A model generated the notes under the pieces. The model made no database searches and had not been told where the DNA came from. It worked only from the letters and a program-made list of their open reading frames with translations. From Schmidtea polychroa (lineage: Eukaryota), in contig CM097887.1 of NCBI GenBank assembly GCA_044892525.1, positions 53,196,001 through 53,260,000 on the forward strand: a DNA stretch of 64,000 nucleotides. Reading direction: 5' to 3'. The translations under genes were made by a program, and so were the position numbers. How positions within the stretch are numbered: the stretch's first letter is position 1; each line of letters starts with the position of its first letter. Shown piece by piece: positions 18,758 through 52,639 of this stretch.

Positions 18758-18840
18758 AAAATTAGAAATTGTAAAATATTAAAATGTATCGGTTATTGTA
18801 GCCGTGTTTTTTTTCGCAAAACAGATTTTTATTTTATATA

Positions 18841-21698: not shown

Positions 21699-22517
21699 TT
21701 GTTTAGTTGAAGGGAAAAACAACTAGGAAAAATACAAAAAATTTAAATTAGAAAGAAAGCGATTGGAAAAATATACCTGTTGACGTTTAGGGAAAGAAAA
21801 GATTAATTTGAATACATAAGGATAAATGTGTACAAGTGGAAATATCCATACAGAGGCTTTCATGATCGTTTATATTCTATCTATATACCCATAACAATAA
21901 CCATGTTGGTAATGTACATAATCGTAGAGAGCCAATGAGCAGGTGAGCTTTATTACTAAAACTATTCCTAATTGTGCTTTATATACGGGTTCTGGGCTGT
22001 CGATAGCATGACTTAGCATGACACTTCGGCTTCCGACAAAATCTCATCTAGATCAAAGAAATTTTAAGTCATATTTAGCGTAAAGGTCATGCCATCGATA
22101 TTAAGATCCATGTCTGGTGGAATCTCCTAGGTATGCAGTTTACTCAAGACCTTCATCGCCCATTGTTTGGCGTATCTGACCACCTTCTTCATTTGCTTTC
22201 ACTTCGGCTTCTGCAATGGTGGATTGGCATTATGAATTGTGGCGCACAAGTAAATTATGAGTGAAGGAATCCAAATCCTAGTAGATGGATCTCACGTCAA
22301 TCATATAATGAGCTAGAATCAGTTTGGCCATTTCAGAAGATTGAAGACTGTGAATTCTGTGCTGTAACTTGGTTTTAGTGTCGACCTGTTATAGGGCATG
22401 CGTCTGTTCCTTTAACTCTAACCGCAACTCTAAACTATCTGAAACTTATTCCTTCCAAAACTCCAACAATAATTTAAACGAACATTGGAATTAGAACTAG
22501 AAATAAATTATAATAAA
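21699..22517 (-). repeat. Inverted copy of the 18060-18397 repeat containing an insertion of about 480 bp
   Basis: Homology breaks at about 21965 and resumes at about 22448; attcct occurs at both junctions. Confidence 0.75.
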
Positions 22518-24852: not shown

Positions 24853-25639
24853 TAAAATAAATTTCACAGGGTACCAGAAAACAGAACAAAAAATGGTAAA
24901 ATCAATATAAGTACAAAATTAATTAAAATTTAATAAAAATTAAAAATCAATATTGAACGGGGGTATCGGGTATGGTTGAATGCCAAATTGTTAGACGAGG
25001 TTAGAAAGTATAATAAAAATGTAATAGGGTGACCATAGAAAAAGTTAATAAGGAAAAACAAATTAATTAAAATTAATTAATCTGTAATGGAAAGCCCGAG
25101 CCAATGGAAAGCCCGAGCCCATGGGAAACCCGAGCACTGAAGAAAACCCGATGCGCAGTGAGACCCGAGACACCAGATAAGGGAATAACAATTCGGATAA
25201 TAATCGCAGGGTAAATAAATTTAAATAATTGTCGAACCGTTCCAAATTTACTTAGGGTGCCCGGGGAAATAATTAATTTCATTTTGTTAGATAATTGGCC
25301 TCTTAAAAACAGTATAAAAGGAGAGCTTAGAAATGAGCAAGCCGCCATTTGGTCGAAGAGAAAAAGGAAAAATCTAAACAGAAAGTCCAGCAGGGACAAG
25401 TTAAAAGAGGAAAATTTGTGAGTTATAAAGAAGCTAAATCGTACAAGACAAGGTAATTACCCCTTGGGTTTCTTACCTTAGCGAACCAAATTCAAATTGA
25501 GAGAAAGGTGCAAATAGTGACAAATTGTAATTGTGATAAAAAGTGAATAAAGTTATTCTGTGTTGAGTTTTCGTTGATTTGGTAAAACAAGGACACGAGG
25601 AGTCAGAGACAGGACCGACTTACAAGTAAAAACTCAACA
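24853..25639 (+). repeat. LTR1 (first 20 bp in gap)
   Basis: Matches 38353-39139 and ends CAACA. TATAAAAG at 25313-25320; AATAAA at 25546-25551. Confidence 0.95.
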
Positions 25640-25642
25640 TTT

Positions 25643-25660
25643 TGGTGAGCCCGACGTGAT
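25643..25660 (+). promoter_or_regulatory. Primer binding site, tRNA-Trp
   Basis: TGGTGAGCCCGACGTGAT begins 3 nt after the LTR end. It is 17/18 identical to the classical tRNA-Trp PBS TGGTGACCCCGACGTGAT. Confidence 0.9.
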
Positions 25661-25895: not shown

Positions 25896-26106
25896 ATTGA
25901 ACAAATTGTGAAGTTGAAATAAAAGAGTGAAAGCTAAAAGATATTGAAATTAAGTTGTGGAAAAGTTACAAAAATTTATAAAAACTATTATTGGAAATTA
26001 ATTCAAAATTAAAACAAAAGGTAAAGTTAAAAATTGTAATTTTTTAAAATTTAGACAAGAAACAGTTGTCCAAGAGAAATTATACAATCTAAGAAGTAAA
26101 AAACAC

Positions 26107-29100
26107 TTGGAAAATATGGCGACGAGCAACTCAAATATCAATGAACAAATCTCAGTGTCTACTACTCAAGCGAACAATGGAAATGATTATGCCAGTTGTC
26201 AAAAGTTACCAGTTGAGCAATATGGAGGAGATCCAGTCCAATTTGTTGACTTTATGGCAGATTACTACATGTATGCCACAGCTTATGGATGGAGCCAAGC
26301 AACTATGGTACAACGTCTACCATTATATTTAAAAGGAGCTGCGCGAGAGGCTTGGCAACAGATTGACAAACGACCTATAGCAAATGATTGGACAAGATTG
26401 AAAGATGCATTGGCAGCCAAGTTGATTGGAGGAGATATAAAGAGAATGATGCGCCAAAAGTTCTACAGTCGAGTGCAAAAGCCCGAGGAATCCATAAGTG
26501 AGTTTGCTTATCATTTAACCACTCTTGCAGAGAAAGCGTTCGAAGTAAAGCCAGATCAAGAAGAAGTAGCAAAGCAAGTCAAAGAATTACTTCAGGACCA
26601 ATTTTTGACAGGAGTCAAGAAAGAAATCAAAAAGGCTTTATGTTTTGTTGATTTTACAAATTTTGATGACTTGATTAGAAAAGCCATGAGAATTGAAATG
26701 AATCTTAAAACGACTCAGTCAAAGGCGGAATCATTTGCGATTATCAATGAGCCTCGAGATAGATCTATAACCCCAGTCAGCGATAACTTGCTTCAAAGAT
26801 CAACCAGTCCATCTCCCAAGTTCAGAGTGAAATTTGAACAAAGAAAGTCAACAGACAGTCCAAATGAGGAAAGAGAAAGAACTCTACAATGCAGTCATTG
26901 CCAGAGAATGGGTCATCACATAAATCAATGCTGGTTTAAAAATAACATTCGAAGAAGCCCTAGTCCGGTTCAGTGTGATTACTGTCAAAGAAAAGGACAT
27001 AGCAATAGCCAATGTTGGTTCAAAAATAACGAACAGCGTAGTCCAAAGGGAATGCGGTCAGAATGGCTGAAAAGTAATGGTGAGAAAAGTTTTAACAGAA
27101 CGAATATCAGTAACCAGAGAACTAATGATAACATACAATGCTATAATTGTGGAAGGAAAGGACATGTCACTCGAAATTGTTTTGCAAGATCCAGATCTCT
27201 ATCAACATCACCCTCACCGCAAAGAGACAGAGTTAACTTACAAGGCCAAATCCAATGTCATTCCTGTAGAGGCTATGGACATATGGCTAGATCTTGTCCA
27301 AAGAGTAATAATATATTTCAAAGGCCGATATTAAAGAAGACGAGATTTCAGAAAGACAAATCGCAATCTGACAATATAGCTTTTGCGCAAACAGATGATT
27401 TTAACGAGAGGATTGAAAATGAGATGAAGCAGATGAGTAGACGCTTGGATCGATTAATGTGCAAATTCGAATCGGACGAAGAATTGAGTAACCACATGAT
27501 GTATGAGTCGCAATCAAAAGGATCAGAGGCAGATTCTAAAGAGAAATTGGATAAAGAAGACATAGAAAGAGAAAAAGTAACAATGATTATACTGAGGATC
27601 AACAGATTTATTAAAGAGAGAGCAACAGAAACATCTAAAGTAATCTCATCGCTAAAGGAATTGAGTCAAATGACAATGAGCATACAAAATTTGAAAAATG
27701 TAATTGAGTTATGTGCCGATTATTATGATACCAATTTAAAAGATGAAAAGGAAATTGAAAATGTGATGCAAATATTTGCGAAAACGTATCGAGAAAGTAC
27801 ATGGTTAGATTTTATTTTAATTAATGTTTTAGATGAAAATGAGAAAGAAGTAGCTTGCATTCGGTGTGAAGCAGGAGATTGTGTAGATGATTTAAAGAAT
27901 AGATTAGAAGAAAATAATGGGAAACAGATAATAGAATTGAAGTTTAAAAATCGATGCTTACGCAATGATGAGTTTTTAATTGATTGTGGTTTTATACCAG
28001 GAAATAAAAATAAAGTGATAGCAAAAATGACAAGACGTTATGAAAATGTAAAAAGCGATCCACAGAAAATTGTAAATGAGCTGAGAGAAGCTTTTGATGA
28101 GTGGAATAAAAATGCAATTGATGAAAAGTTGAAATTAGTAGAGGAAACGGAATTTGACGAAAATAGTAAATTAGAAATTGTAAATGTAGTACGTCCATAT
28201 GTATATAAAAACTCGAAATATAAAGAAATATTAAAAGGTTTATTACGAAAATTTGGAAAAGAGATTAGAGAGACCAGGATAGAATTGAAACCATTTGTAA
28301 TAGCGTTAGATTATAAAAATGAAGGAGAAATAGAGTATATAGAAGAACATTGGTGTACCAAGGTTGGTAAATTGCGAAAGAGAGCCGCTGAAAGAATGGG
28401 AAAGGATGGAATTATTCAATTGATATTTAAAAGTGAAGAATTAGATGACGATGAATATTTATACGATTGTGGGTTTATACCTCAAGAATTAGATGTAGAC
28501 GGATATTTATGTTCAGATACAGGATATTCACTAAATTATGTAATAGTAATTAAAAATCAGATATCAAATAAAGGATATGAGTCCGACAGGTCAAATGATG
28601 AGATAGAAAGGGATAATGAAAATGAAAGAAGAGTTGAAAATGAAGGTGTACTAGATAACAAGGACATAGGAACTAATGATAAAGATAAAGGTATAATAAC
28701 AGAAGTATTAAAGGAAGGGCAAGAAACCAAAAGTGAAGTGAATAGTGAAATAAAGACTAAAAAGCCTAGAACTTTGTATGAAATAAAAAAGAGCCTGGTG
28801 AAGTCAGAATTAGAAGTGGGTGAGACAAAAGAGTTATTAAAGAATTTAGATAAATTAATATATCCAATGTTCGAAATAAAATTGAATACAAAGTACGAAT
28901 TGGGAGACACAGTGAATGAAATGGAAAAGAAACTTCCTAGTGTTATGCAGAGATTTGGTGAAAATGATGACTTTTGTAATAGAGGGGTCATGAAAACTTT
29001 GACGAAAAATGGAATTGATAAAGAAGTAGTACTAACAAGCTTAACATATGCAGTTTTAGAGATAGGAGCTCATAAGATAATGGAATCAGATGAATTAGAG

Positions 29101-32100
29101 AATTTGATAGATGCAGCTGCTCGAGTTTTAAATGAATATTTAATGAATTGGATAAAAAGGAATGGAGGTTGGACCAAACTGGTAAAAGTGCTTACGATAA
29201 ATGAAAATAACGAAATTAATATACCCCATAAATCGCTAAATGGGAGAGTTAGCCCAATATTGAGAAAAACGATGGTATTTCCATGGGTAATGTTTATGAT
29301 AATTGTTTTGTGCGCAATAATTACCCAGACAACCTGTATGACTGCATTTGATTGTTCACAAACGGAAATGGGAAAAATTTATTCGGTAGTAGATGTGTCA
29401 GAATGTTCGGATGCATACCCGAGAAAACTAAAGGTTGAAAAAGATGTAAAATATCATGTATATCAAGAGTCTGATTTAAGACGAACGAAGGTTCGAGAAT
29501 GTATAGTCAAAAGTACCACATTTATATTTTATTGTTGGAAGTGGAGCCATACTTCATTGATAAAGATGTATACAATCCCAAGGCCAGTGGAAGTTATGCC
29601 AGAAAATTGTTTAGCAGCATTTCAAACAGAAGAATTGAAAATAAGTTCGAAAATTAAATTGAAGGCAAAAATAAATCATAGGACGAGAGAAACGGTGGTT
29701 ACGAAAGGATTAATGAAGCAAGACGGAGATTGTGAAGGGGAACCGTACAAAGTCAGTGGTAAAATTATTCAAAAAGCAGTAGTGATAGAAGAATATCTAA
29801 CGGAATTGAGAGAATTTGAAGGAGCTTTTGATGATGATACGGGGAAGTTACAGACCCACCCATTTTGTAATATGAAACAAAATAACTGTCAAACGGGGGG
29901 ATCAATTCTTGTTTATGAAGTAAAAACTAATGTATGTAACTTAGCGCATTTAAAAACGATGAATTTCAAAGAAATTAGTGGAGAGCAGTTTAGGGAAAGG
30001 CCTGACAATATTAATGTAAATTATGGAGTAAATATGACAATCAGATCAACGCCCGTTTGGACAAGAAAAACAGCGACTGTATTAATGTCGATAATTCCGA
30101 TGGACGCCATGCGTTTTATATTAAAGGAAGTTACCAATAAATGTGGTCAGACGGTATACTCCACAAATTACAAAGGAGTTTACGTATCAACAGTAAGAGT
30201 ACAGGAAGCTAAAACGAGAATTCATACGGGTGATATTAAATTAACCCATTACTTTAACAATAAAATTGATTACTTATTTCATTATAGTCAGAACACCATG
30301 GAGAATATCTATCGAGAAATAATCTTAAATGATTGTAAATTAAATAAAGAAATACTTCGAAATCGAATGGCAATGGCCATCACAAACCCAAATTTGGTTG
30401 CACCCATGTTAATATCAGAAAATGGAGTATTTGCGAGAATCTTCGGAGAAGCTTTATATAGTTATAAATGCAAGGAAGTGTCAGTAAAAATAATGAAATA
30501 CGAAAAATGTACTAATGAATTGCCAGTTAGCGTCGATGGGAAGATGCGATTTATGGAACCAATAACACGGATATTACTTGACGAAAACACAAAACCAAAA
30601 TTGCTCCAGTGCAATAGATTGCTAGCCCCGTTATATCTTTTGGCACCAGACTCTTGGGTAGCATTACCCGATTACCGAGGAGTTAGAACTCCAGATAAAT
30701 TGGAATTAATCAATTTAGAGTATTTAGTGAACTTTACATCCCTAAATAAAATGGCACAACTAGGTCTCTACGCAAGCGAGGATATAGAAGAAGCTCAAAG
30801 AAATTTATTATTTCCATCAAAGAAAGAACGGGTGATATCAGAAATGATTGATACAATATTACCAAACGGAGAGAGTAAAGTTAATTATGAATATCTCCTA
30901 ACGCCAGATCATTTCAAAAAAGCAACGTACAAAACGATGGAAAAGATTTGGGGAAAATTTATGTTCTTAGGACAAGCGTGTGCTGGTTTGATTGGCATCT
31001 ATGTGATCGTAGTAACAATAAAGGTGATACTATCTCAAATTTTATCTGCTCATAGAATATATAAAATATCCGGATGGTCGTGGAAAATAATTATTGGTTG
31101 TATTCCGTTTATAGCAAGATTTTTTATTACTCATCATCAATATAAAGAAATGGAGAATGTGAGAGCACAGTTAAAAACGGATCAAAAGAGTGAAGAATCC
31201 TTGTGTGAATCGAGGGATAGAAATAGTGGCAATAACACCAACAATGACAATGGCAGAAACGAGCAAATGTATTTTAGAAAAGAAATAATGAAAAGCGAGG
31301 TAAAACCAGAGTCACGGTGCCTACTAGAACAGATGCCAAAACTTACAGGAATCGACACTCTCTCAAAATGGTATACACCGGTATTCCTTCCAACAGCACC
31401 AACATATCTAAGTGAAAGGCTAAAAGAAATGAAACCAGTAGAACATATTAAACTAGAAGCTGAAAGGATTGAACCAACAAGTGCCGAAATAGAACGGAAA
31501 AACATGCTCGGATTACCATGTAGTTATGCGTTGATGACAATAGGAAATAGAGGCAAACAACCTCGAACAAATATACTATTTAACGAGAGAAAGGTCAAAG
31601 CCTTGTTAGACTCCGGTTCCAGTCATACTATAGTGTCAGATAAACTGTTGACAAGGGAAGAGAGAGCAAAGATGAAACCGACGAATAAAATTATTAAATC
31701 AATGTCTCACAATGTACTGAATATAATCGGGAAGCTAGAAGTCAAATTAATTATTGGTAATCAAGAAATAACACATTATGTGTCAGTAATGAGTAAAAGC
31801 CCTGTTGAATGTCTAATTGGTATGGATGTTATGGAGCAACTGCGAGGAATTGCGCTGGATCTGACAACAGGAAAATTAATAAAGGGACAATTAGATACAG
31901 TTGCAAATAAACCAAGAGAAGTTGTTTTAAATCAAACGTTGGAAATACCAGCAAGAAGCGAAATAATATGTTATGCTAGTGTAGCAAACACGTCAGATGA
32001 CGAATGTGTTTTCGAACCCAGTCGAAAACTAGTAGAGAAATACGAATTGCCAATGTGCGACGAGATAGTACAGGTAAAAGATCAGGCAGTCCCAGTGAGA

Positions 32101-35100
32101 ATGGCTAATCTTAGCACAAAATCTATCCAAATGAAACCTAACACGAAGTTAGGAAAGTTAATGAAATTTAAAACAGAAGAAGCCCAAAAATTACCGAGAA
32201 ACATTAAAATTTATAGAAAACCACAAGTGACGAGCAATGATTTGACAGACGCACAAAAACAACAGTTTATGGCATTATTAAAAAAGTACAAAAGAGTATT
32301 TGCAAAGCACGAGTACGATTTGGGACTTACCCAGGTGATCGAACATGAGATACCACTACTCGATGAAACTCCTATTAAATTACGACCGTATAGAATCCCT
32401 TATATACATCAAGAGGAAAGTGATAGACAGATAAAAGCGATGAAAGAGTTTGACATAATAAGAGACAGTTCATCACCATTCTCATCCTCAATAGTAGTAG
32501 TCAAAAAGAAAGACGGCGATTTACGGTTTTGTGTGGATTATAGAAAATTGAATCAGGCTACAAGAAAAGACCCCTACCCTATTCCAGTTCCACCGGAAAT
32601 GTTTGATCAAATGGGAGAAGTACAATTCATCACAGTAATCGATTTGAATAAGGGATATAATCAATTTAAAGTAAAAGAAGAAGATAGAAGGAAAACGGCA
32701 TTTTCAGATGGTAAAGGTTTGTACGAATTCAATGTGTTACCATTTGGCTTAACGGGAGCGCCAGCCACGTTCCAGCGAGGTATGAATTTTGTATTAAGAG
32801 ACATCCCACACGCATTAGTTTATATTGATGATATAATAATATTTTCGAATAATTTTCAGGAACATTTGGAAGATGTAGAAACAGTATTCCAAAGATTGTT
32901 AAAGGCGAATTTAAAAATAAAACCCTCAAAATGTGAATGGGGGAAATCAGAGGTAGTCTATGTTGGTCATATTATATCCCGAAGAGGATTACAGCCAAAC
33001 CCAGAAAATGTAGAAAAAATTAAAAATTATCCAATTCCAAAAAATGTAGATCATGTTAGACAATTTCTCGGATTAGCCAGTTATTATAGAAAATTCATTA
33101 AAAATTTTGCGCATGTAGCACAACCCCTGAACATATTATTAAAAAAGCAGGCTCAATTTAAATGGACAAAAACACAACAGGAAGCGTTCGAATCGTTGAA
33201 AGAAAGTTTGATTAAAAAACCAATATTGAGATGTCCAAATTTTAAAATACCATTTATCCTAATGACAGATGCGAGCAATTTTGCGTTGGGCGCAGTGCTA
33301 GGACAACAGGTTGAAGGAGAAAGAGATCACGTTATCGCATATGCGAGTAGAACTTTGAAACCGCATGAAAAGAATTATTCTACGATTGAAAAAGAAACGT
33401 TGGCATTAGTTTATGGAATAACTACATTTCGACAGTATTTAGTTGGGAGAAGATTTGTTGTCTTTACGGACCATAACCCTTTACAATGGCTCATGAAGCA
33501 TAGAGATTCAACAAGTAAGTTGATTAGATGGTCAATCGCACTACAGGAATATGATTTTGAAATCAAATACCGTACGGGTAAATCAAATGCAAATGCAGAC
33601 ACACTGTCGAGAATCCCTGAGGAAAATAATAATAATAATGAAAAAACGAACTATAATGATACAATATTTATGGTAATTAAATCAGCAAATAATATAAAGG
33701 AATTACAATATGATCAAGAAAATGATGAGGAACTAAATCAATTACGAAAAAATGCAGTAACAATTAAAAAGGAGAGTGATTGGAAACATATTGTTGAGGA
33801 AAAACATAAATATATTATCCACGAGGGTTTATTAAAATGTGTAAAAAATGAAAATTTGCTAATTATAGTTCCAGCAAAACATCGAGAAGCATTATTGTTG
33901 ATTTACCACGATGGAGCACTAGGAGGACATTTATCGGCTCGAAAAACATTATCAAGACTGAAATTGAAGTATTATTGGGAGACAATGGAACAAGATGTCA
34001 AACAATGGTGCCATACTTGTAAAGTATGTTTGACAAGACGAAATACAGGAAGGAAAATAAAAGTTCCACTAAGACCTATGCCGGTGCCAGCAGCGCCAAT
34101 GGAAATGACAGCAATGGACATTGTCGGTCCATTGCCGGAAACAATAAATGGCAATAAATATATTGTTGTATTTTGCGACTATCTAACTAAGTGGCCAGAA
34201 GCATATGCCATGCAAAATCAAAAGGCAGAAACAGTTGCAAAAATATTAGTAGAAAACATTATTTTCCGATATGGAGCACCAAAGAAATTACTTACAGATC
34301 AGGGAACGAATTTTCAAAGTGAATTATTTAGTTCGATATCGGAGCTATTTGGTATATTAAAACTTAGTACATCACCATATCATCCACAAACAGATGGCCT
34401 AGTAGAAAGGTTTAACGGAACATTAATTAATATGATATCATCTTATGTAAATCGAAAACAAAGAGATTGGGATTTATTTATCAAACCATGTTTATTCGCA
34501 TATCGAAACGCAGTTAATGAAAGCACTGGTGAAACACCCTTTTATCTTATGTATCTACGGCGAAATAATATGCCAATTGATTTGAAATTTCAAACACCTA
34601 TATCACAGTATATGGATATATCCGATTATAAAGTAATCATGCATGAGAGATTACAGTCAGTGTGGGCTCAAGCTGGTTTAAAAATAAGACATAGCCAAGA
34701 AACGTATAAAGAATCCTACTACAAGAAAGCACATGCTCATAATATTAAAATAGGAGATTTAGTCTATGTGAATAAACCAGAACCAGAAAAGGGCTTGTCA
34801 CCAAAGTTACAACGACCGTTTAAAGGACCGTATATTGTATGTGATACAACAGAAACCAACCTCAAATTACATCCACAGAATAATAAAAAGGCTGGGACAA
34901 TTATAGTTCATGCAAATCGTTGTAAGAAAGTGCCGGCAATGGAGAGTGATAGATATCCATTAAGATCGAAAAAGAACAAATCAGTAGAAGAAAAAGTGGT
35001 CAAGCAAAAAGTTATTAAAAACCCAGTACCCTTAGGATATACCACGAAAGTCTTATTGATAACAACAATGATGCTACTAAATGTTTTGGGAACAAAGGCA

Positions 35101-36261
35101 GGTAGATCTTTTCCAAAGTATGCAATAAAAAGGGTCCCATTATTGGATAAAATTCATATATATTCAACATGTACCCAAATAGTATGGTTTTATCTGTGTG
35201 GGTCAACGGAAGAAATAGAAATAAGTAATCTATTAAATCACTTTAACCCACCTGTAAGATTGAATTTCAATAAAAATATTTTCGTGGCTCGTCAATTAAC
35301 AGTCAATTATGAATACACTTGGCAAATAACAGAGTTACTATTTCAAAATAATAATACAAAAATACGTAATATAATCCAAATTGAAATATTAACAAAAAAT
35401 TTAAACAGTCTGGTTTCAATAGAACCAGTAGTGAATGGAATCGACGTATATTGGGAACCCCACGAATCCCAAAAAGTGAAATTAATATTCCAAAATAATA
35501 TTATCGATACATTAAACATCAGAAAACCCTTTGTCCATTACAATAATTTAAAATTAAATCAAACGTATGATATCGTTGTGCAATATTATGAAAAGCTTTT
35601 GCGGGAAAATGGTACCGAAATCGATAACCAGTGGGTAAAAATTGAGTCTACTCGACAATCCATAAAATTAGAAAATGAACCAAATCGTATTATTTTACGA
35701 TATGATAATCAAAAATGGATAGCCACACGACAAGCGATAACCAATAACAAAGTGGAAATTTATTATTGCGGAAAACTGCAAGCTATATTGCAAGGTAATA
35801 TTACATCTAAAATATTAACATTTCAGCAAATACGTTCAAAGTCAACTTCAAAAATTGTGATTGTAAAGATAAAATATTATCAACGTGCTTTTCATCCCGA
35901 TCATTGGAAAATCGTTCTAGTGGAAAGTAAATCTATTCGAGTACCATTTGATACAGCTGAGGTAGAAAGCTCAAAAAATATGCACAATTCATCAACCAAT
36001 GTGATTCATCAACTCATAAATGACATTAATTCTTCTTTTATTAATGGAACACAAATTCCAAGAAATAAAACTACATTCTCATTATCAAATGATTTTGAAA
36101 ATACTTATGTTATTTTGTCATCTATCATCATCAGTGTGACACCATTTTCCATTATCATTCTTCTCACTCTACTGATTTACTTTCAAAGACTGAACAGACA
36201 ATATGAATGTCAATCCAAGACCTCACAACCTTGGATTGTCTACGAGGAAACATGGGTCTAG
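26107..36261 (+). CDS. Gag-UBL-UBL-Bcl2-like-Env-PR-RT-RH-IN-membrane protein polyprotein, copy 1 (3384 aa; first ATG 26116)
   Basis: Retrotransposon Gag core; 4 CX2CX4HX4C knuckles (26890-27297); WIKRNGGW (29149); signal segment (29272-29337); Cys-rich glycoprotein with TM (29338-31131); LLDSGS (31609); YIDD (32821); TDAS..E..TDH (33268 onward); HHCC, DDE and GPY integrase (about 33850-34940); C-terminal TM (36109-36183). Confidence 0.97.
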   Translation: MENMATSNSNINEQISVSTTQANNGNDYASCQKLPVEQYGGDPVQFVDFMADYYMYATAYGWSQATMVQRLPLYLKGAAREAWQQIDKRPIANDWTRLKDALAAKLIGGDIKRMMRQKFYSRVQKPEESISEFAYHLTTLAEKAFEVKPDQEEVAKQVKELLQDQFLTGVKKEIKKALCFVDFTNFDDLIRKAMRIEMNLKTTQSKAESFAIINEPRDRSITPVSDNLLQRSTSPSPKFRVKFEQRKSTDSPNEERERTLQCSHCQRMGHHINQCWFKNNIRRSPSPVQCDYCQRKGHSNSQCWFKNNEQRSPKGMRSEWLKSNGEKSFNRTNISNQRTNDNIQCYNCGRKGHVTRNCFARSRSLSTSPSPQRDRVNLQGQIQCHSCRGYGHMARSCPKSNNIFQRPILKKTRFQKDKSQSDNIAFAQTDDFNERIENEMKQMSRRLDRLMCKFESDEELSNHMMYESQSKGSEADSKEKLDKEDIEREKVTMIILRINRFIKERATETSKVISSLKELSQMTMSIQNLKNVIELCADYYDTNLKDEKEIENVMQIFAKTYRESTWLDFILINVLDENEKEVACIRCEAGDCVDDLKNRLEENNGKQIIELKFKNRCLRNDEFLIDCGFIPGNKNKVIAKMTRRYENVKSDPQKIVNELREAFDEWNKNAIDEKLKLVEETEFDENSKLEIVNVVRPYVYKNSKYKEILKGLLRKFGKEIRETRIELKPFVIALDYKNEGEIEYIEEHWCTKVGKLRKRAAERMGKDGIIQLIFKSEELDDDEYLYDCGFIPQELDVDGYLCSDTGYSLNYVIVIKNQISNKGYESDRSNDEIERDNENERRVENEGVLDNKDIGTNDKDKGIITEVLKEGQETKSEVNSEIKTKKPRTLYEIKKSLVKSELEVGETKELLKNLDKLIYPMFEIKLNTKYELGDTVNEMEKKLPSVMQRFGENDDFCNRGVMKTLTKNGIDKEVVLTSLTYAVLEIGAHKIMESDELENLIDAAARVLNEYLMNWIKRNGGWTKLVKVLTINENNEINIPHKSLNGRVSPILRKTMVFPWVMFMIIVLCAIITQTTCMTAFDCSQTEMGKIYSVVDVSECSDAYPRKLKVEKDVKYHVYQESDLRRTKVRECIVKSTTFIFYCWKWSHTSLIKMYTIPRPVEVMPENCLAAFQTEELKISSKIKLKAKINHRTRETVVTKGLMKQDGDCEGEPYKVSGKIIQKAVVIEEYLTELREFEGAFDDDTGKLQTHPFCNMKQNNCQTGGSILVYEVKTNVCNLAHLKTMNFKEISGEQFRERPDNINVNYGVNMTIRSTPVWTRKTATVLMSIIPMDAMRFILKEVTNKCGQTVYSTNYKGVYVSTVRVQEAKTRIHTGDIKLTHYFNNKIDYLFHYSQNTMENIYREIILNDCKLNKEILRNRMAMAITNPNLVAPMLISENGVFARIFGEALYSYKCKEVSVKIMKYEKCTNELPVSVDGKMRFMEPITRILLDENTKPKLLQCNRLLAPLYLLAPDSWVALPDYRGVRTPDKLELINLEYLVNFTSLNKMAQLGLYASEDIEEAQRNLLFPSKKERVISEMIDTILPNGESKVNYEYLLTPDHFKKATYKTMEKIWGKFMFLGQACAGLIGIYVIVVTIKVILSQILSAHRIYKISGWSWKIIIGCIPFIARFFITHHQYKEMENVRAQLKTDQKSEESLCESRDRNSGNNTNNDNGRNEQMYFRKEIMKSEVKPESRCLLEQMPKLTGIDTLSKWYTPVFLPTAPTYLSERLKEMKPVEHIKLEAERIEPTSAEIERKNMLGLPCSYALMTIGNRGKQPRTNILFNERKVKALLDSGSSHTIVSDKLLTREERAKMKPTNKIIKSMSHNVLNIIGKLEVKLIIGNQEITHYVSVMSKSPVECLIGMDVMEQLRGIALDLTTGKLIKGQLDTVANKPREVVLNQTLEIPARSEIICYASVANTSDDECVFEPSRKLVEKYELPMCDEIVQVKDQAVPVRMANLSTKSIQMKPNTKLGKLMKFKTEEAQKLPRNIKIYRKPQVTSNDLTDAQKQQFMALLKKYKRVFAKHEYDLGLTQVIEHEIPLLDETPIKLRPYRIPYIHQEESDRQIKAMKEFDIIRDSSSPFSSSIVVVKKKDGDLRFCVDYRKLNQATRKDPYPIPVPPEMFDQMGEVQFITVIDLNKGYNQFKVKEEDRRKTAFSDGKGLYEFNVLPFGLTGAPATFQRGMNFVLRDIPHALVYIDDIIIFSNNFQEHLEDVETVFQRLLKANLKIKPSKCEWGKSEVVYVGHIISRRGLQPNPENVEKIKNYPIPKNVDHVRQFLGLASYYRKFIKNFAHVAQPLNILLKKQAQFKWTKTQQEAFESLKESLIKKPILRCPNFKIPFILMTDASNFALGAVLGQQVEGERDHVIAYASRTLKPHEKNYSTIEKETLALVYGITTFRQYLVGRRFVVFTDHNPLQWLMKHRDSTSKLIRWSIALQEYDFEIKYRTGKSNANADTLSRIPEENNNNNEKTNYNDTIFMVIKSANNIKELQYDQENDEELNQLRKNAVTIKKESDWKHIVEEKHKYIIHEGLLKCVKNENLLIIVPAKHREALLLIYHDGALGGHLSARKTLSRLKLKYYWETMEQDVKQWCHTCKVCLTRRNTGRKIKVPLRPMPVPAAPMEMTAMDIVGPLPETINGNKYIVVFCDYLTKWPEAYAMQNQKAETVAKILVENIIFRYGAPKKLLTDQGTNFQSELFSSISELFGILKLSTSPYHPQTDGLVERFNGTLINMISSYVNRKQRDWDLFIKPCLFAYRNAVNESTGETPFYLMYLRRNNMPIDLKFQTPISQYMDISDYKVIMHERLQSVWAQAGLKIRHSQETYKESYYKKAHAHNIKIGDLVYVNKPEPEKGLSPKLQRPFKGPYIVCDTTETNLKLHPQNNKKAGTIIVHANRCKKVPAMESDRYPLRSKKNKSVEEKVVKQKVIKNPVPLGYTTKVLLITTMMLLNVLGTKAGRSFPKYAIKRVPLLDKIHIYSTCTQIVWFYLCGSTEEIEISNLLNHFNPPVRLNFNKNIFVARQLTVNYEYTWQITELLFQNNNTKIRNIIQIEILTKNLNSLVSIEPVVNGIDVYWEPHESQKVKLIFQNNIIDTLNIRKPFVHYNNLKLNQTYDIVVQYYEKLLRENGTEIDNQWVKIESTRQSIKLENEPNRIILRYDNQKWIATRQAITNNKVEIYYCGKLQAILQGNITSKILTFQQIRSKSTSKIVIVKIKYYQRAFHPDHWKIVLVESKSIRVPFDTAEVESSKNMHNSSTNVIHQLINDINSSFINGTQIPRNKTTFSLSNDFENTYVILSSIIISVTPFSIIILLTLLIYFQRLNRQYECQSKTSQPWIVYEETWV

Positions 36262-36622
36262 TGAGATACATTTATTTTGCATGCAATTATGATATTATAA
36301 TAGTACTGTATTAGTAGTAACTTTTATGATAGTTGTAAAATTTGCACCTTTCAATCAAAGAGAAATATGATTGGCTGAGAGGGATAGAAAAATAAATATG
36401 AACTAAATTTTATGGGAAAGAAAATTTAATAACTGTACATAAGGGGTCGTAAAAATAATTAAAATCAGTTTAATTAATTCAATCAAAAAATTAAGATCTT
36501 TCAAAATTGAATAGGTAAATTTTTATTAATATTTATTATTTATACAGTGATCACCAAGGCAGTGCCCCTGAGGTACTCTACCGTGTTGATCACTTCAATC
36601 TTAAATTCTAACAAATTTAATA

Positions 36623-38065
36623 GTGAATATTTCAGTAATGGAACAAATCCAAAGAACTAGAGCAATTTATGATGGATATTTGAAGATACACCGCAACCAC
36701 GTGGGACAAGATGCCATCACCATCAATGACAACCTGAAAATCCCAAACTACTTGAGGGTGGACGACAGAAAAATGAAAACTCAAATTTTTAAAGTGAGCC
36801 GGAAATCGGTGAAAATAATAGAAGAAGATGAAATCAAGGATGGAAATGAGTACACGCTACACGTGATCAAAGGGAAAGTGGAGGTAATAGACGAACGACA
36901 AAAAGTCTATTGGGAATTACACCAAGGATCATCGTGGAAACTGCAGAAAGAAACCTTGAGGAAAAGGTTGAGAGCATCCAATGAAGATTCAAGAGTTGTT
37001 GTGGAAACACGAAGCCCGAACGAGGAAAATGAAATTCCACAAACCACTTCAAAATTGCCAGATGATCCAACCATGCTTCCAATTACTACAGAAATGCTGA
37101 AAAGAAGATGGTCATTTATTCGAAAAGAAATGAGTTTGGAGGAGATACGGAACCGAATTGTGTTTATGGATGCAGAATATGGAACATCAGAAAATAATAA
37201 AATGATTCCATTGTCAATAGCGATGATGAATTATGAAGGGAAAATAATTAAAAATTCATATTTGACACCAAGAGGAAGATTGCGTCATTTCAATTCCAGC
37301 ATTCATGGTATCACAGAGATTGCCAGTAGAAACCAATGCGACCAGTACACGGAGATGCGAGAAGTGCAAAAACTAACTGTTGGAAAAATTTTAGTGGGAC
37401 ATGATCTTCATGCAGAATTGGAATATTTGAAAATCTGGACAAATCAGTTGTACGGAATTAGGGATTTAGCAACAGCACAGGCACTCCAACTGAAAGGAAT
37501 AACAAGGAAAGGAGAATTCTTTAAACTTAAAACAGTGGTTGAAGAAGTACTCGGAGAACAAACACAAACTGGTATTCACTCAGCATTGGAAGATGTCAAA
37601 AAAGTACGGAGAGTGTACAGGGAAATTGAGAATTTATGGGAAGATGATGTAAAAATCCAGAAAATAGTCCCATCAAAGAAATATTCTTTAGCCGAATATC
37701 AAAAACTTCATGCGATGGACAAAATACCAACAACGAGTGGAACATCCTGTGAGATAGTAGAACAAGTTGATCTAACAATTGAGGAACAAATGGAAATTGA
37801 CGAAGCACCGTTGAAATGGGCAACGGAAGAATATTTGGAGCCGATCAAGGAAAGCCTCGAAATGATAATAAGTTCATCGATCCACAGAATTCCGGCATCA
37901 TTCGAACATGGGCCTATACTTCATTTAGAGAATAGGAAAAGAAAATCGACAACAAAAATCGAAGCCAGCGAATCCATCATGGTGAATGGAATAGTCTATT
38001 ATCGGGAGAAAACATATATCCGCTACAAGAGTGAGGCGGGAGAAATAGAATTAAAAATTGATTAA
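36623..38065 (+). CDS. ORF2, copy 1: REX4/ISG20-like DEDDh 3'-5' exonuclease with N-terminal beta-rich domain (first ATG 36638)
   Basis: VFMDAEYG (Exo I, 37169), IHGIT, ILVGHDLHAEL (Exo II, 37397), IRDL, GIHSALEDV (Exo III, 37577). Confidence 0.9.
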   Translation: MNISVMEQIQRTRAIYDGYLKIHRNHVGQDAITINDNLKIPNYLRVDDRKMKTQIFKVSRKSVKIIEEDEIKDGNEYTLHVIKGKVEVIDERQKVYWELHQGSSWKLQKETLRKRLRASNEDSRVVVETRSPNEENEIPQTTSKLPDDPTMLPITTEMLKRRWSFIRKEMSLEEIRNRIVFMDAEYGTSENNKMIPLSIAMMNYEGKIIKNSYLTPRGRLRHFNSSIHGITEIASRNQCDQYTEMREVQKLTVGKILVGHDLHAELEYLKIWTNQLYGIRDLATAQALQLKGITRKGEFFKLKTVVEEVLGEQTQTGIHSALEDVKKVRRVYREIENLWEDDVKIQKIVPSKKYSLAEYQKLHAMDKIPTTSGTSCEIVEQVDLTIEEQMEIDEAPLKWATEEYLEPIKESLEMIISSSIHRIPASFEHGPILHLENRKRKSTTKIEASESIMVNGIVYYREKTYIRYKSEAGEIELKID

Positions 38066-38332: not shown

Positions 38333-39139
38333 TGTTGGGGTTAGAGCAAAAATAAAATAAATTTCACAGGGTACCAGAAAACAGAACAAAAAATGGTAAA
38401 ATCAATATAAGTACAAAATTAATTAAAATTTAATAAAAATTAAAAATCAATATTGAACGGGGGTATCGGGTATGGTTGAATGCCAAATTGTTAGACGAGG
38501 TTAGAAAGTATAATAAAAATGTAATAGGGTGACCATAGAAAAAGTTAATAAGGAAAAACAAATTAATTAAAATTAATTAATCTGTAATGGAAAGCCCGAG
38601 CCAATGGAAAGCCCGAGCCCATGGGAAACCCGAGCACTGAAGAAAACCCGATGCGCAGTGAGACCCGAGACACCAGATAAGGGAATAACAATTCGGATAA
38701 TAATCGCAGGGTAAATAAATTTAAATAATTGTCGAACCGTTCCAAATTTACTTAGGGTGCCCGGGGAAATAATTAATTTCATTTTGTTAGATAATTGGCC
38801 TCTTAAAAACAGTATAAAAGGAGAGCTTAGAAATGAGCAAGCCGCCATTTGGTCGAAGAGAAAAAGGAAAAATCTAAACAGAAAGTCCAGCAGGGACAAG
38901 TTAAAAGAGGAAAATTTGTGAGTTATAAAGAAGCTAAATCGTACAAGACAAGGTAATTACCCCTTGGGTTTCTTACCTTAGCGAACCAAATTCAAATTGA
39001 GAGAAAGGTGCAAATAGTGACAAATTGTAATTGTGATAAAAAGTGAATAAAGTTATTCTGTGTTGAGTTTTCGTTGATTTGGTAAAACAAGGACACGAGG
39101 AGTCAGAGACAGGACCGACTTACAAGTAAAAACTCAACA
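38333..39139 (+). repeat. LTR2 (shared middle LTR, 807 bp)
   Basis: TGTTG...CAACA termini, preceded by the PPT and followed by the PBS. Confidence 0.97.
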
Positions 39140-39142
39140 TTT

Positions 39143-39160
39143 TGGTGAGCCCGACGTGAT
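39143..39160 (+). promoter_or_regulatory. Primer binding site, tRNA-Trp, copy 2
   Basis: TGGTGAGCCCGACGTGAT. Confidence 0.9.
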
Positions 39161-39606: not shown

Positions 39607-42600
39607 TTGGAAAATATGGCGACGAGCAACTCAAATATCAATGAACAAATCTCAGTGTCTACTACTCAAGCGAACAATGGAAATGATTATGCCAGTTGTC
39701 AAAAGTTACCAGTTGAGCAATATGGAGGAGATCCAGTCCAATTTGTTGACTTTATGGCAGATTACTACATGTATGCCACAGCTTATGGATGGAGCCAAGC
39801 AACTATGGTACAACGTCTACCATTATATTTAAAAGGAGCTGCGCGAGAGGCTTGGCAACAGATTGACAAACGACCTATAGCAAATGATTGGACAAGATTG
39901 AAAGATGCATTGGCAGCCAAGTTGATTGGAGGAGATATAAAGAGAATGATGCGCCAAAAGTTCTACAGTCGAGTGCAAAAGCCCGAGGAATCCATAAGTG
40001 AGTTTGCTTATCATTTAACCACTCTTGCAGAGAAAGCGTTCGAAGTAAAGCCAGATCAAGAAGAAGTAGCAAAGCAAGTCAAAGAATTACTTCAGGACCA
40101 ATTTTTGACAGGAGTCAAGAAAGAAATCAAAAAGGCTTTATGTTTTGTTGATTTTACAAATTTTGATGACTTGATTAGAAAAGCCATGAGAATTGAAATG
40201 AATCTTAAAACGACTCAGTCAAAGGCGGAATCATTTGCGATTATCAATGAGCCTCGAGATAGATCTATAACCCCAGTCAGCGATAACTTGCTTCAAAGAT
40301 CAACCAGTCCATCTCCCAAGTTCAGAGTGAAATTTGAACAAAGAAAGTCAACAGACAGTCCAAATGAGGAAAGAGAAAGAACTCTACAATGCAGTCATTG
40401 CCAGAGAATGGGTCATCACATAAATCAATGCTGGTTTAAAAATAACATTCGAAGAAGCCCTAGTCCGGTTCAGTGTGATTACTGTCAAAGAAAAGGACAT
40501 AGCAATAGCCAATGTTGGTTCAAAAATAACGAACAGCGTAGTCCAAAGGGAATGCGGTCAGAATGGCTGAAAAGTAATGGTGAGAAAAGTTTTAACAGAA
40601 CGAATATCAGTAACCAGAGAACTAATGATAACATACAATGCTATAATTGTGGAAGGAAAGGACATGTCACTCGAAATTGTTTTGCAAGATCCAGATCTCT
40701 ATCAACATCACCCTCACCGCAAAGAGACAGAGTTAACTTACAAGGCCAAATCCAATGTCATTCCTGTAGAGGCTATGGACATATGGCTAGATCTTGTCCA
40801 AAGAGTAATAATATATTTCAAAGGCCGATATTAAAGAAGACGAGATTTCAGAAAGACAAATCGCAATCTGACAATATAGCTTTTGCGCAAACAGATGATT
40901 TTAACGAGAGGATTGAAAATGAGATGAAGCAGATGAGTAGACGCTTGGATCGATTAATGTGCAAATTCGAATCGGACGAAGAATTGAGTAACCACATGAT
41001 GTATGAGTCGCAATCAAAAGGATCAGAGGCAGATTCTAAAGAGAAATTGGATAAAGAAGACATAGAAAGAGAAAAAGTAACAATGATTATACTGAGGATC
41101 AACAGATTTATTAAAGAGAGAGCAACAGAAACATCTAAAGTAATCTCATCGCTAAAGGAATTGAGTCAAATGACAATGAGCATACAAAATTTGAAAAATG
41201 TAATTGAGTTATGTGCCGATTATTATGATACCAATTTAAAAGATGAAAAGGAAATTGAAAATGTGATGCAAATATTTGCGAAAACGTATCGAGAAAGTAC
41301 ATGGTTAGATTTTATTTTAATTAATGTTTTAGATGAAAATGAGAAAGAAGTAGCTTGCATTCGGTGTGAAGCAGGAGATTGTGTAGATGATTTAAAGAAT
41401 AGATTAGAAGAAAATAATGGGAAACAGATAATAGAATTGAAGTTTAAAAATCGATGCTTACGCAATGATGAGTTTTTAATTGATTGTGGTTTTATACCAG
41501 GAAATAAAAATAAAGTGATAGCAAAAATGACAAGACGTTATGAAAATGTAAAAAGCGATCCACAGAAAATTGTAAATGAGCTGAGAGAAGCTTTTGATGA
41601 GTGGAATAAAAATGCAATTGATGAAAAGTTGAAATTAGTAGAGGAAACGGAATTTGACGAAAATAGTAAATTAGAAATTGTAAATGTAGTACGTCCATAT
41701 GTATATAAAAACTCGAAATATAAAGAAATATTAAAAGGTTTATTACGAAAATTTGGAAAAGAGATTAGAGAGACCAGGATAGAATTGAAACCATTTGTAA
41801 TAGCGTTAGATTATAAAAATGAAGGAGAAATAGAGTATATAGAAGAACATTGGTGTACCAAGGTTGGTAAATTGCGAAAGAGAGCCGCTGAAAGAATGGG
41901 AAAGGATGGAATTATTCAATTGATATTTAAAAGTGAAGAATTAGATGACGATGAATATTTATACGATTGTGGGTTTATACCTCAAGAATTAGATGTAGAC
42001 GGATATTTATGTTCAGATACAGGATATTCACTAAATTATGTAATAGTAATTAAAAATCAGATATCAAATAAAGGATATGAGTCCGACAGGTCAAATGATG
42101 AGATAGAAAGGGATAATGAAAATGAAAGAAGAGTTGAAAATGAAGGTGTACTAGATAACAAGGACATAGGAACTAATGATAAAGATAAAGGTATAATAAC
42201 AGAAGTATTAAAGGAAGGGCAAGAAACCAAAAGTGAAGTGAATAGTGAAATAAAGACTAAAAAGCCTAGAACTTTGTATGAAATAAAAAAGAGCCTGGTG
42301 AAGTCAGAATTAGAAGTGGGTGAGACAAAAGAGTTATTAAAGAATTTAGATAAATTAATATATCCAATGTTCGAAATAAAATTGAATACAAAGTACGAAT
42401 TGGGAGACACAGTGAATGAAATGGAAAAGAAACTTCCTAGTGTTATGCAGAGATTTGGTGAAAATGATGACTTTTGTAATAGAGGGGTCATGAAAACTTT
42501 GACGAAAAATGGAATTGATAAAGAAGTAGTACTAACAAGCTTAACATATGCAGTTTTAGAGATAGGAGCTCATAAGATAATGGAATCAGATGAATTAGAG

Positions 42601-45600
42601 AATTTGATAGATGCAGCTGCTCGAGTTTTAAATGAATATTTAATGAATTGGATAAAAAGGAATGGAGGTTGGACCAAACTGGTAAAAGTGCTTACGATAA
42701 ATGAAAATAACGAAATTAATATACCCCATAAATCGCTAAATGGGAGAGTTAGCCCAATATTGAGAAAAACGATGGTATTTCCATGGGTAATGTTTATGAT
42801 AATTGTTTTGTGCGCAATAATTACCCAGACAACCTGTATGACTGCATTTGATTGTTCACAAACGGAAATGGGAAAAATTTATTCGGTAGTAGATGTGTCA
42901 GAATGTTCGGATGCATACCCGAGAAAACTAAAGGTTGAAAAAGATGTAAAATATCATGTATATCAAGAGTCTGATTTAAGACGAACGAAGGTTCGAGAAT
43001 GTATAGTCAAAAGTACCACATTTATATTTTATTGTTGGAAGTGGAGCCATACTTCATTGATAAAGATGTATACAATCCCAAGGCCAGTGGAAGTTATGCC
43101 AGAAAATTGTTTAGCAGCATTTCAAACAGAAGAATTGAAAATAAGTTCGAAAATTAAATTGAAGGCAAAAATAAATCATAGGACGAGAGAAACGGTGGTT
43201 ACGAAAGGATTAATGAAGCAAGACGGAGATTGTGAAGGGGAACCGTACAAAGTCAGTGGTAAAATTATTCAAAAAGCAGTAGTGATAGAAGAATATCTAA
43301 CGGAATTGAGAGAATTTGAAGGAGCTTTTGATGATGATACGGGGAAGTTACAGACCCACCCATTTTGTAATATGAAACAAAATAACTGTCAAACGGGGGG
43401 ATCAATTCTTGTTTATGAAGTAAAAACTAATGTATGTAACTTAGCGCATTTAAAAACGATGAATTTCAAAGAAATTAGTGGAGAGCAGTTTAGGGAAAGG
43501 CCTGACAATATTAATGTAAATTATGGAGTAAATATGACAATCAGATCAACGCCCGTTTGGACAAGAAAAACAGCGACTGTATTAATGTCGATAATTCCGA
43601 TGGACGCCATGCGTTTTATATTAAAGGAAGTTACCAATAAATGTGGTCAGACGGTATACTCCACAAATTACAAAGGAGTTTACGTATCAACAGTAAGAGT
43701 ACAGGAAGCTAAAACGAGAATTCATACGGGTGATATTAAATTAACCCATTACTTTAACAATAAAATTGATTACTTATTTCATTATAGTCAGAACACCATG
43801 GAGAATATCTATCGAGAAATAATCTTAAATGATTGTAAATTAAATAAAGAAATACTTCGAAATCGAATGGCAATGGCCATCACAAACCCAAATTTGGTTG
43901 CACCCATGTTAATATCAGAAAATGGAGTATTTGCGAGAATCTTCGGAGAAGCTTTATATAGTTATAAATGCAAGGAAGTGTCAGTAAAAATAATGAAATA
44001 CGAAAAATGTACTAATGAATTGCCAGTTAGCGTCGATGGGAAGATGCGATTTATGGAACCAATAACACGGATATTACTTGACGAAAACACAAAACCAAAA
44101 TTGCTCCAGTGCAATAGATTGCTAGCCCCGTTATATCTTTTGGCACCAGACTCTTGGGTAGCATTACCCGATTACCGAGGAGTTAGAACTCCAGATAAAT
44201 TGGAATTAATCAATTTAGAGTATTTAGTGAACTTTACATCCCTAAATAAAATGGCACAACTAGGTCTCTACGCAAGCGAGGATATAGAAGAAGCTCAAAG
44301 AAATTTATTATTTCCATCAAAGAAAGAACGGGTGATATCAGAAATGATTGATACAATATTACCAAACGGAGAGAGTAAAGTTAATTATGAATATCTCCTA
44401 ACGCCAGATCATTTCAAAAAAGCAACGTACAAAACGATGGAAAAGATTTGGGGAAAATTTATGTTCTTAGGACAAGCGTGTGCTGGTTTGATTGGCATCT
44501 ATGTGATCGTAGTAACAATAAAGGTGATACTATCTCAAATTTTATCTGCTCATAGAATATATAAAATATCCGGATGGTCGTGGAAAATAATTATTGGTTG
44601 TATTCCGTTTATAGCAAGATTTTTTATTACTCATCATCAATATAAAGAAATGGAGAATGTGAGAGCACAGTTAAAAACGGATCAAAAGAGTGAAGAATCC
44701 TTGTGTGAATCGAGGGATAGAAATAGTGGCAATAACACCAACAATGACAATGGCAGAAACGAGCAAATGTATTTTAGAAAAGAAATAATGAAAAGCGAGG
44801 TAAAACCAGAGTCACGGTGCCTACTAGAACAGATGCCAAAACTTACAGGAATCGACACTCTCTCAAAATGGTATACACCGGTATTCCTTCCAACAGCACC
44901 AACATATCTAAGTGAAAGGCTAAAAGAAATGAAACCAGTAGAACATATTAAACTAGAAGCTGAAAGGATTGAACCAACAAGTGCCGAAATAGAACGGAAA
45001 AACATGCTCGGATTACCATGTAGTTATGCGTTGATGACAATAGGAAATAGAGGCAAACAACCTCGAACAAATATACTATTTAACGAGAGAAAGGTCAAAG
45101 CCTTGTTAGACTCCGGTTCCAGTCATACTATAGTGTCAGATAAACTGTTGACAAGGGAAGAGAGAGCAAAGATGAAACCGACGAATAAAATTATTAAATC
45201 AATGTCTCACAATGTACTGAATATAATCGGGAAGCTAGAAGTCAAATTAATTATTGGTAATCAAGAAATAACACATTATGTGTCAGTAATGAGTAAAAGC
45301 CCTGTTGAATGTCTAATTGGTATGGATGTTATGGAGCAACTGCGAGGAATTGCGCTGGATCTGACAACAGGAAAATTAATAAAGGGACAATTAGATACAG
45401 TTGCAAATAAACCAAGAGAAGTTGTTTTAAATCAAACGTTGGAAATACCAGCAAGAAGCGAAATAATATGTTATGCTAGTGTAGCAAACACGTCAGATGA
45501 CGAATGTGTTTTCGAACCCAGTCGAAAACTAGTAGAGAAATACGAATTGCCAATGTGCGACGAGATAGTACAGGTAAAAGATCAGGCAGTCCCAGTGAGA

Positions 45601-51832: not shown

Positions 51833-52639
51833 TGTTGGGGTTAGAGCAAAAATAAAATAAATTTCACAGGGTACCAGAAAACAGAACAAAAAATGGTAAA
51901 ATCAATATAAGTACAAAATTAATTAAAATTTAATAAAAATTAAAAATCAATATTGAACGGGGGTATCGGGTATGGTTGAATGCCAAATTGTTAGACGAGG
52001 TTAGAAAGTATAATAAAAATGTAATAGGGTGACCATAGAAAAAGTTAATAAGGAAAAACAAATTAATTAAAATTAATTAATCTGTAATGGAAAGCCCGAG
52101 CCAATGGAAAGCCCGAGCCCATGGGAAACCCGAGCACTGAAGAAAACCCGATGCGCAGTGAGACCCGAGACACCAGATAAGGGAATAACAATTCGGATAA
52201 TAATCGCAGGGTAAATAAATTTAAATAATTGTCGAACCGTTCCAAATTTACTTAGGGTGCCCGGGGAAATAATTAATTTCATTTTGTTAGATAATTGGCC
52301 TCTTAAAAACAGTATAAAAGGAGAGCTTAGAAATGAGCAAGCCGCCATTTGGTCGAAGAGAAAAAGGAAAAATCTAAACAGAAAGTCCAGCAGGGACAAG
52401 TTAAAAGAGGAAAATTTGTGAGTTATAAAGAAGCTAAATCGTACAAGACAAGGTAATTACCCCTTGGGTTTCTTACCTTAGCGAACCAAATTCAAATTGA
52501 GAGAAAGGTGCAAATAGTGACAAATTGTAATTGTGATAAAAAGTGAATAAAGTTATTCTGTGTTGAGTTTTCGTTGATTTGGTAAAACAAGGACACGAGG
52601 AGTCAGAGACAGGACCGACTTACAAGTTAAAACTCAACA
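51833..52639 (+). repeat. LTR3 (3' LTR, 807 bp)
   Basis: TGTTG...CAACA followed by TATATA flank. It has one visible difference from LTR1/2 (T at 52628 versus A). Confidence 0.97.

Follow-up and report, generated by a model that had tools for sequence, protein, structure and literature searches.

The window analysed here is a 64,000-nt stretch of the Schmidtea polychroa contig CM097887.1 (assembly GCA_044892525.1, positions 53,196,001 to 53,260,000 of the forward strand), and all coordinates below refer to it. Positions 24853-52639 hold an arrangement of LTR-internal-LTR-internal-LTR, in which two tandem copies of a 14.3-kb element, with one LTR in common, match at 100% identity over 14,275 nt; the pair reflects either a recent unequal crossing-over or an assembly duplication. 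The LTRs are 807-nt TG..CA repeats accompanied by a purine tract and a primer-binding site, presumably of the tRNA-Trp type, and the third LTR diverges near its own 3' end from the others. Copy 1 contains one stop-free frame (26002-36261, + strand; first ATG at 26116; 3384 aa counted from 26107), which agrees with the single ORF proposed in an earlier sequence-only reading of this DNA, and neither a frameshift nor a readthrough is needed to read it. Elsewhere in the window there are an exon of a host FAD-dependent monooxygenase (9914-10423), long inverted repeats that are probably a DNA transposon (18062-22517) and a fragment of a piggyBac-type (DDE_Tnp_1_7) transposase (63110-63628). The tandem pair comprises:

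24853..25639, + strand: readable part of the copy-1 5' LTR, with no difference from the middle LTR
25643..25660, + strand: primer-binding site, read in copy 2 at 39143-39160; the same in a sister family (family 2, see below)
26021..26054, + strand: 34-nt GT..AG segment in the 5' leader, a candidate donor and acceptor, conserved in family 2
26116..36261, + strand: single polyprotein ORF of 3381 aa, counted from its first ATG
36515..36547, + strand: 33-nt GT..AG segment ahead of ORF2, strong acceptor, conserved in family 2
36638..38065, + strand: ORF2, ISG20-like 3'-5' exonuclease (phmmer: ISG20L2 E 1.2e-7, ISG20 E 2e-6)
38333..39139, + strand: middle LTR, shared, TG..CA, with a polypurine tract just before it
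39616..49761, + strand: second identical copy of the polyprotein ORF, 13,500 nt downstream of the first
51833..52639, + strand: 3' LTR

On the basis of its domain order, its Pfam matches and the likeness of its Env to a published element, we classify the element as a gypsy-type (Ty3/gypsy, Metaviridae) LTR retrotransposon. Its family (family 1) has 40 scored matches in the genome at 96-100% identity, and family 2 shows 74% nucleotide identity to it. Among the best-scoring candidates only, an intact frame is found in 2 of 43 gag matches of family 1, and 21 of 107 gag matches of family 2 lie in frames of at least 3400 aa. A family-1 copy carrying an internal inversion (L023, L010) and a tandem array of truncated family-2 pieces with ~6.7-kb spacing (G000:C2 near 99.87-99.90 Mb, L020) were also observed. 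ORF2 is kept in family 2, is preceded by a strong splice acceptor, and found no match in a phage search. A near-exact deletion of ORF2 (window equivalent ~36613-38055) recurs in copies with and without Pol alike (L023, L024, L025), and one further copy (L026) has no match beyond the window equivalent of 36652 within the stretch fetched.

The polyprotein is made up of the following parts, with H1 to H5 denoting its hydrophobic segments:

26116..27390, + strand: Gag, capsid and zinc knuckles (Pfam Retrotrans_gag E 2e-5, zf-CCHC E 1e-4)
27883..28497, + strand: two ubiquitin-like repeats (BLASTP E 2e-9 and 1e-3 against the part of the relative P0010 that is PF00240-positive)
28912..29172, + strand: Bcl-2-like domain, residues 936-1022 (Pfam E 1.4e-4, below the curated cut-off)
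29272..29337, + strand: H1, putative internal signal sequence for Env; residue 1077 is the last before the predicted cut
29338..30957, + strand: Env ectodomain, predicted class III fusion fold, 14 Cys (Pfam PF24664 E 2e-87)
30958..31020, + strand: H2, putative Env transmembrane anchor
31075..31131, + strand: H3, likely an interfacial amphipathic helix, non-spanning
31390..31401, + strand: PTAP late-domain-type motif, residue 1762, in the linker between Env tail and protease
31525..31545, + strand: candidate viral-protease site, ~25 residues before the catalytic Asp
31555..34869, + strand: Pol, PR-RT-RNase H-integrase (Pfam)
35050..35100, + strand: H4, putative internal signal sequence of a second membrane protein
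35101..36105, + strand: second ectodomain, likely FN3-like (fn3 feature matches 0.90-0.93, Atlas)
36106..36183, + strand: H5, putative transmembrane anchor
36247..36258, + strand: ETWV C-terminus, which we take to be a class I PDZ-binding-type motif

The comparison drew on a first set of ten polyproteins (the window, family 2 and P0003-P0010; 37-42% identity over Env), on held-out polyproteins, including three full-length ones (P0013, P0017 and P0025), and, for H2 and H3, on 96 stand-alone glycoprotein homologues; since these sequences are kin, counts over them overstate independence. A candidate viral-protease site, recognized by a recurring hydrophobic pattern, follows the zinc knuckles and marks the end of Gag. 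The ubiquitin-like repeats have no direct Pfam match, and the Bcl-2-like domain has weak matches to Bcl-2 structures in the PDB (best E 0.07). The candidate site ahead of PR is based on a hydrophobic pattern that recurs, by eye, before the PR domains of relatives; a YP motif considered as the N-terminal cut of PR was rejected in favor of this separate site. Two to five aspartic-protease-like domains are seen in the relatives P0003-P0010, among them one lying between integrase and H4, and the window has one; P0010 carries ankyrin repeats and P0009 is devoid of RT.

The Pfam model matched by Env is that of the Monjiviricetes fusion glycoprotein. A structural model built from 100 sequences (pLDDT 89.9) retrieved chuvirus glycoprotein G (E 1e-43) and herpesvirus gB (E 1.5e-15) in Foldseek searches, and on this model Env is a class III fusogen of the chuvirus G/herpes gB type; a phage search with Env gave no match. 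The second ectodomain shows no Pfam, PDB or sequence match, BLAST reveals no resemblance between it and the domains found in its place in P0003-P0010, and its single-sequence fold prediction reaches a pLDDT of 31 only. Its FN3 likeness comes from language-model features only, with low recognition that is weak by the tool's own criteria. The sequence-only reading had described regions rich in glycosylation sites between the hydrophobic segments. This is true of the second ectodomain (8 sequons vs 4.8 expected; 60 vs 31.6 over eight relatives) but not of Env, which is sequon-poor (2 vs 4.0 expected in the window; 15 vs 28.1 over eight relatives), while the Env tail and Pol are near neutral (93 vs 77.4 expected, eight relatives).

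All five hydrophobic stretches picked out in the sequence-only reading are present where it placed them, H1, H2 and H5 being strong and H3 and H4 weak in the window. Their Kyte-Doolittle peaks over 19 residues are 2.43 (H1), 2.44 (H2), 1.38 (H3), 1.45 (H4) and 2.56 (H5), and soluble strands of RT and RNase H used as controls score 1.31 and 1.40, so H3 and H4 are not above chance on the window alone. The end of H1 has small residues at -3 and -1, always in register, in all 10 proteins of the first set (background 0.10), and by eye the same rule holds in 12 of 14 further proteins. H1 corresponds to the N-terminal signal peptide of the stand-alone homologues, and the Pfam model was matched from position 5 in P0003. 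At H2 a 21-residue uncharged run is found in 9 of 10 proteins. H4, despite its weak score in the window, is accepted on the grounds that it is present and more hydrophobic in relatives: H4 and H5 occur together in 8 of 8 full-length relatives of the first set and in all three held-out ones, and the upstream side of H4 is net positive in 8 of 8.

H3, unlike H4, is not rescued by the comparison. Its uncharged core is 10 residues long in 10 of 10 proteins and is flanked by Lys/Arg at both ends with a Pro in the center, at which the helix is broken in the Env model; in 33 of 96 stand-alone homologues the center is Asp. On an approximate insertion scale, the mean for H3 is 3.8, compared with 0.0 for H1, 0.4 for H2, and 5.6 and 7.7 for the soluble controls; a score of 1.5 or less is reached by H3 in 11% and by H2 in 66% of the 96 stand-alone homologues, in which H3 is longer (median uncharged run 16). 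H3 is thus likely to lie on the membrane surface at the cytosolic leaflet without spanning. Further hydrophobic peaks appear in relatives inside the protease-like and Bcl-2-like domains, including an extra helix within the Bcl-2-like domain of family 2 (KD 1.7-2.1), and probably belong to buried cores.

The pattern H1/H2/H4/H5 is kept in 11 full-length polyproteins with the window counted (eight plus the three held-out ones); P0007 and P0027 stop after Pol and have neither H4 nor H5. We consider it quite probable, from sequence comparison, that the chain crosses the membrane four times, with H1 and H4 as signals and H2 and H5 as anchors, in a flavivirus-style alternation of signal and stop-transfer segments with predicted signal-peptidase sites. 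The crossing number is even and does not place Pol in the lumen. The comparative tests support the predicted arrangement that the sequence-only reading had proposed, with Gag cytosolic, Env lumenal, Pol cytosolic, the second ectodomain lumenal and the C-terminal tail cytosolic.

Sidedness was also judged from short motifs. In retroviruses, PTAP and YPXL serve as docking sites for the ESCRT factors TSG101 and ALIX (PMC8952333). Our motif set (P[TS]AP, YPxL, YPx3[LIV] and PPxY) was picked after inspection of the first ten proteins, so that its presence in the linker between H3 and PR in 10 of 10 of them (1.3 expected) concerns the sequences on which it was chosen; among held-out polyproteins six of 12 linkers contain a motif (1.2 expected) and the other six do not. 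Fifty of 95 stand-alone glycoprotein tails after H3 have one (8.3 expected), with P[TS]AP in 17 (1.1 expected) and YPxL in 29 (1.2 expected) and with no enrichment of PPxY (4 vs 3.5 expected). Counted as P[TS]AP or hydrophobic-YP motifs, the chuvirus-like tails score 52 of 95 against 4.0 expected; we found no statement in the literature searched that ESCRT-type motifs are common in such tails. In the Gag part of the first set PTAP occurs in 0 of 10 proteins and any motif of the set in three of 10. Late-type motifs downstream of H3 place the tail and Pol in the cytosol; as these motifs arrived with Env, they indicate sidedness and not selection for Pol packaging. At the far end, the PDZ-type terminus is seen in 7 of 8 close and in 0 of 3 more distant full-length relatives (chance ~0.03 each), and between families 1 and 2 it is conserved when the linker preceding it is not. 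Taken together, this terminus and the sequon-enriched second ectodomain argue for the same orientation of the far end as the tail motifs.

Splicing was assessed on genomic copies only, from the best-scoring copies, 21 of 43 gag matches being pairable. Internal deletions between gag and PR have GT..AG ends in 0 of 6 cases, hence these copies bear no trace of the env-skipping splice against which the sequence-only reading was to be checked; the three of them that remove Env are all different and all out of frame. A crude scan of both families revealed no conserved in-phase donor/acceptor pair around env. At 31147 there is a conserved but weak acceptor, followed by an in-frame Met that some relatives lack. 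The GT..AG segment of the leader is retained in 7 of 7 copies examined and that before ORF2 in 4 of 4; they could act as micro-introns or as trans-splice acceptors, or together form a donor/acceptor pair that serves ORF2. A 33-nt GT..AG segment in gag (26498-26530), common to both families, was rejected as likely due to chance, as it lies within conserved coding sequence, and slippery-type heptamers and AATAAA are plentiful in this A-rich DNA and thus uninformative. The recurring deletion class takes out Pol, not Env. It defines a Pol-less subfamily (L024, L025 and L026; six of 29 paired copies; window equivalent 31885-34893) with a deletion of 3009-3010 nt at a 10-nt microhomology and with none of the four membrane segments lost; its members may at one time have provided Gag and Env in trans.

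Elements with this gene order have been published. Chary and Hayashi (eLife, PMC13524379) described flatworm GAG-ENV-POL errantiviruses (Smed_errantivirus_1-6), multicopy elements of ~14.5-18 kb with a Gypsy Pol and an HSV/gB-type Env, and reported GAG-ENV-POL elements with a gB-type Env from flatworms, nematodes and bryozoans. The window element likewise has env between gag and pol, a class III gB-like fold and multiple near-identical copies, and inspection by eye shows a close similarity of the window Env to the Env stretch given for Smed_errantivirus_1 in the supplement. The main text of that paper contains no occurrence of "polyprotein", "fibronectin", "late domain" or "ESCRT", and we did not find the post-integrase protein, ORF2 or Pol packaging in it, although its figures may differ. 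Burro/GYPSM1 of planarians was presented by Arkhipova and Yushenova (2019, PMC6431247) as the first instance in which env stands in frame between gag and pol, in one ORF with Gag, zinc knuckles and Ubi/SUMO-like and BCL2-like domains. The window element shares the latter two kinds of domain before env, with weak scores. Burro exceeds 30 kb and has a ~4900-aa ORF with MATH, BIR, ankyrin and dUTPase families, whereas the window element has 14.3 kb and 3381 aa and Pfam finds none of these families in it; it is a Burro-like relative, not Burro. The section on Burro in PMC6431247 describes neither a topology nor a second membrane protein. Nematode NERVs also have env before pol and are assigned to a separate clade in PMC13524379.

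The window element thus adds topology and motifs only, the in-frame gag-env-pol order being already in print. A continuous gag-env-pro-pol ORF is reportedly present in nematode NERVs (Sacco et al. 2022), for which we know of no ubiquitin-like domain, Bcl-2 domain or second membrane protein. In the literature searched we found no account of the Env-tail motifs, the topology or the post-integrase protein, which Sacco 2022, Grohme 2018, Repbase or figures may hold. Atlas virus and other Belpaoviridae make a single Gag-Pol-Env polyprotein that contains internal transmembrane helices as well as sites for host proteases (PMC9094657), so processing at internal transmembrane segments already has a precedent among retroelement polyproteins; their Env is C-terminal and class II and their Gag and Pol are contiguous, whereas the window fusogen precedes Pol and is class III. 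Foamy viruses package Pol without a Gag-Pol fusion (PMC7828637), and Tf1 and Ty5, which have a single ORF, arrive at an excess of Gag by turning over Pol (26:1 in Tf1, ~5:1 in Ty5; PMC7175516). Neither foamy viruses nor Tf1/Ty5 part Gag from Pol by a membrane-threaded Env.

We are inclined to favor, on balance, a scheme in which a four-crossing polyprotein would yield three anchored pieces and Pol would be packaged by a membrane tether instead of as Gag-Pol. Host signal peptidase would cut the chain into Gag-UBL-UBL-Bcl2-H1, with Gag and its cargo held by H1; Env-H2-tail-Pol-H4, in which the cytosolic tail of the Env trimer runs on into Pol; and ectodomain-H5-tail, likely an FN3-type surface protein. 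The separation of Gag from Pol by signal peptidase, as envisaged in the sequence-only reading, agrees with the conserved predicted site, with the addition that signal cleavage would leave H1 on Gag and H4 on integrase, so that all parts would be membrane-held. Pol could plausibly enter particles through its tether to the Env tail, whose PTAP/YPxL-type motifs, inherited with the RNA-virus glycoprotein, would recruit ESCRT where Gag and Pol concentrate; the viral protease would then free capsid at the site after the zinc knuckles and PR at the site after the late motif. All parts would be synthesized 1:1, and surplus Pol would stay on the membrane or be degraded. By our computation a 45-nm lumen has room for at most ~300 Pol chains of 129 kDa, and the Ty3 capsid has ~540 subunits, which makes 1:1 packaging unlikely. 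Unfused to Gag, surplus Pol can be excluded or degraded, as for Tf1. By that analogy turnover, one of the sources of Gag excess named in the sequence-only reading, would suffice and an excess at synthesis would not be required; splicing or early polyadenylation would be unnecessary, as a separated Pol need not be co-packaged 1:1.

The same topology would also permit a transient tether, in which PR, and at H4 an intramembrane protease, would set Pol free at an early stage and the genomic RNA would recruit it to capsids, as in foamy viruses. Candidate PR sites do flank the N-terminal end of Pol, and foamy Pol is synthesized separately from Gag, with RNA elements mediating its packaging (PMC7828637). 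Nevertheless, we regard this as rather unlikely, given that foamy Pol is translated from a spliced mRNA and has no anchor, that neither the window nor family 2 shows an evident PR-type site in the stretch from integrase to H4, and that the two families show no window of clearly raised synonymous-site conservation in what is, with few sites, a weak test. Less probable again is that cleavage at H1 is delayed or incomplete, leaving Gag and Pol linked via the lumenal Env loop until budding, or that some chains skip H1 and stay cytosolic and Gag-Pol-like. H1 does lie more than 1000 residues into the chain, and signal cleavage is delayed in flavivirus C-prM; the foamy Env leader peptide is likewise cleaved late and retained in particles (PMC7828637). 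Against delayed cleavage, the (-3,-1) site of H1 is kept in 22 of 24 proteins, and against skipping, a 540-residue ectodomain with 14 Cys would likely misfold in the cytosol.

If a spliced or trans-spliced mRNA dropped env, ordinary Gag-Pol or Pol alone would be made and the long frame would serve Env only. The splice-like sites conserved in non-coding DNA of the leader and ahead of ORF2, together with the weak acceptor at 31147 before an in-frame Met, could be taken in this sense, and a spliced RNA may leave no DNA copy, the survey having covered the best-scoring copies only. With no conserved in-phase pair flanking env in a crude scan, none of six deletion junctions of the GT..AG type and a Met missing in some relatives, we give splicing slightly less credence than a change at H1. 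We find it very improbable that H3 spans the membrane, which would make Pol lumenal and the long product non-productive for enzymes. H3 is indeed hydrophobic and conserved, and in about one in ten stand-alone homologues it is as hydrophobic as a spanning helix, but its short core, bounded on either side by Lys/Arg and carrying a Pro or Asp in the middle, the ESCRT-type motifs downstream and the orientation of H4 and H5 as signal and anchor all speak against it.

Retroelement enzymes normally enter particles fused to Gag, foamy viruses being the textbook exception. The membrane topology of the tethered-Pol scheme, which separates Gag from Pol and for which exact cut sites and motifs are given here, points to a third packaging route. 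A captured RNA-virus glycoprotein would, on its in-frame insertion, have kept its signal peptide, anchor and late-domain tail. It is conceivable, though we suggest it only tentatively, that a clade of gypsy elements swapped the Gag-Pol fusion for membrane co-assembly of Gag, Env-Pol and a second, FN3-like attachment protein, each a membrane-anchored product of the one chain, with the ESCRT signal in the Env tail instead of Gag, and that the PDZ-type tail could steer a particle with two glycoproteins to cell junctions for cell-to-cell spread in flatworms.
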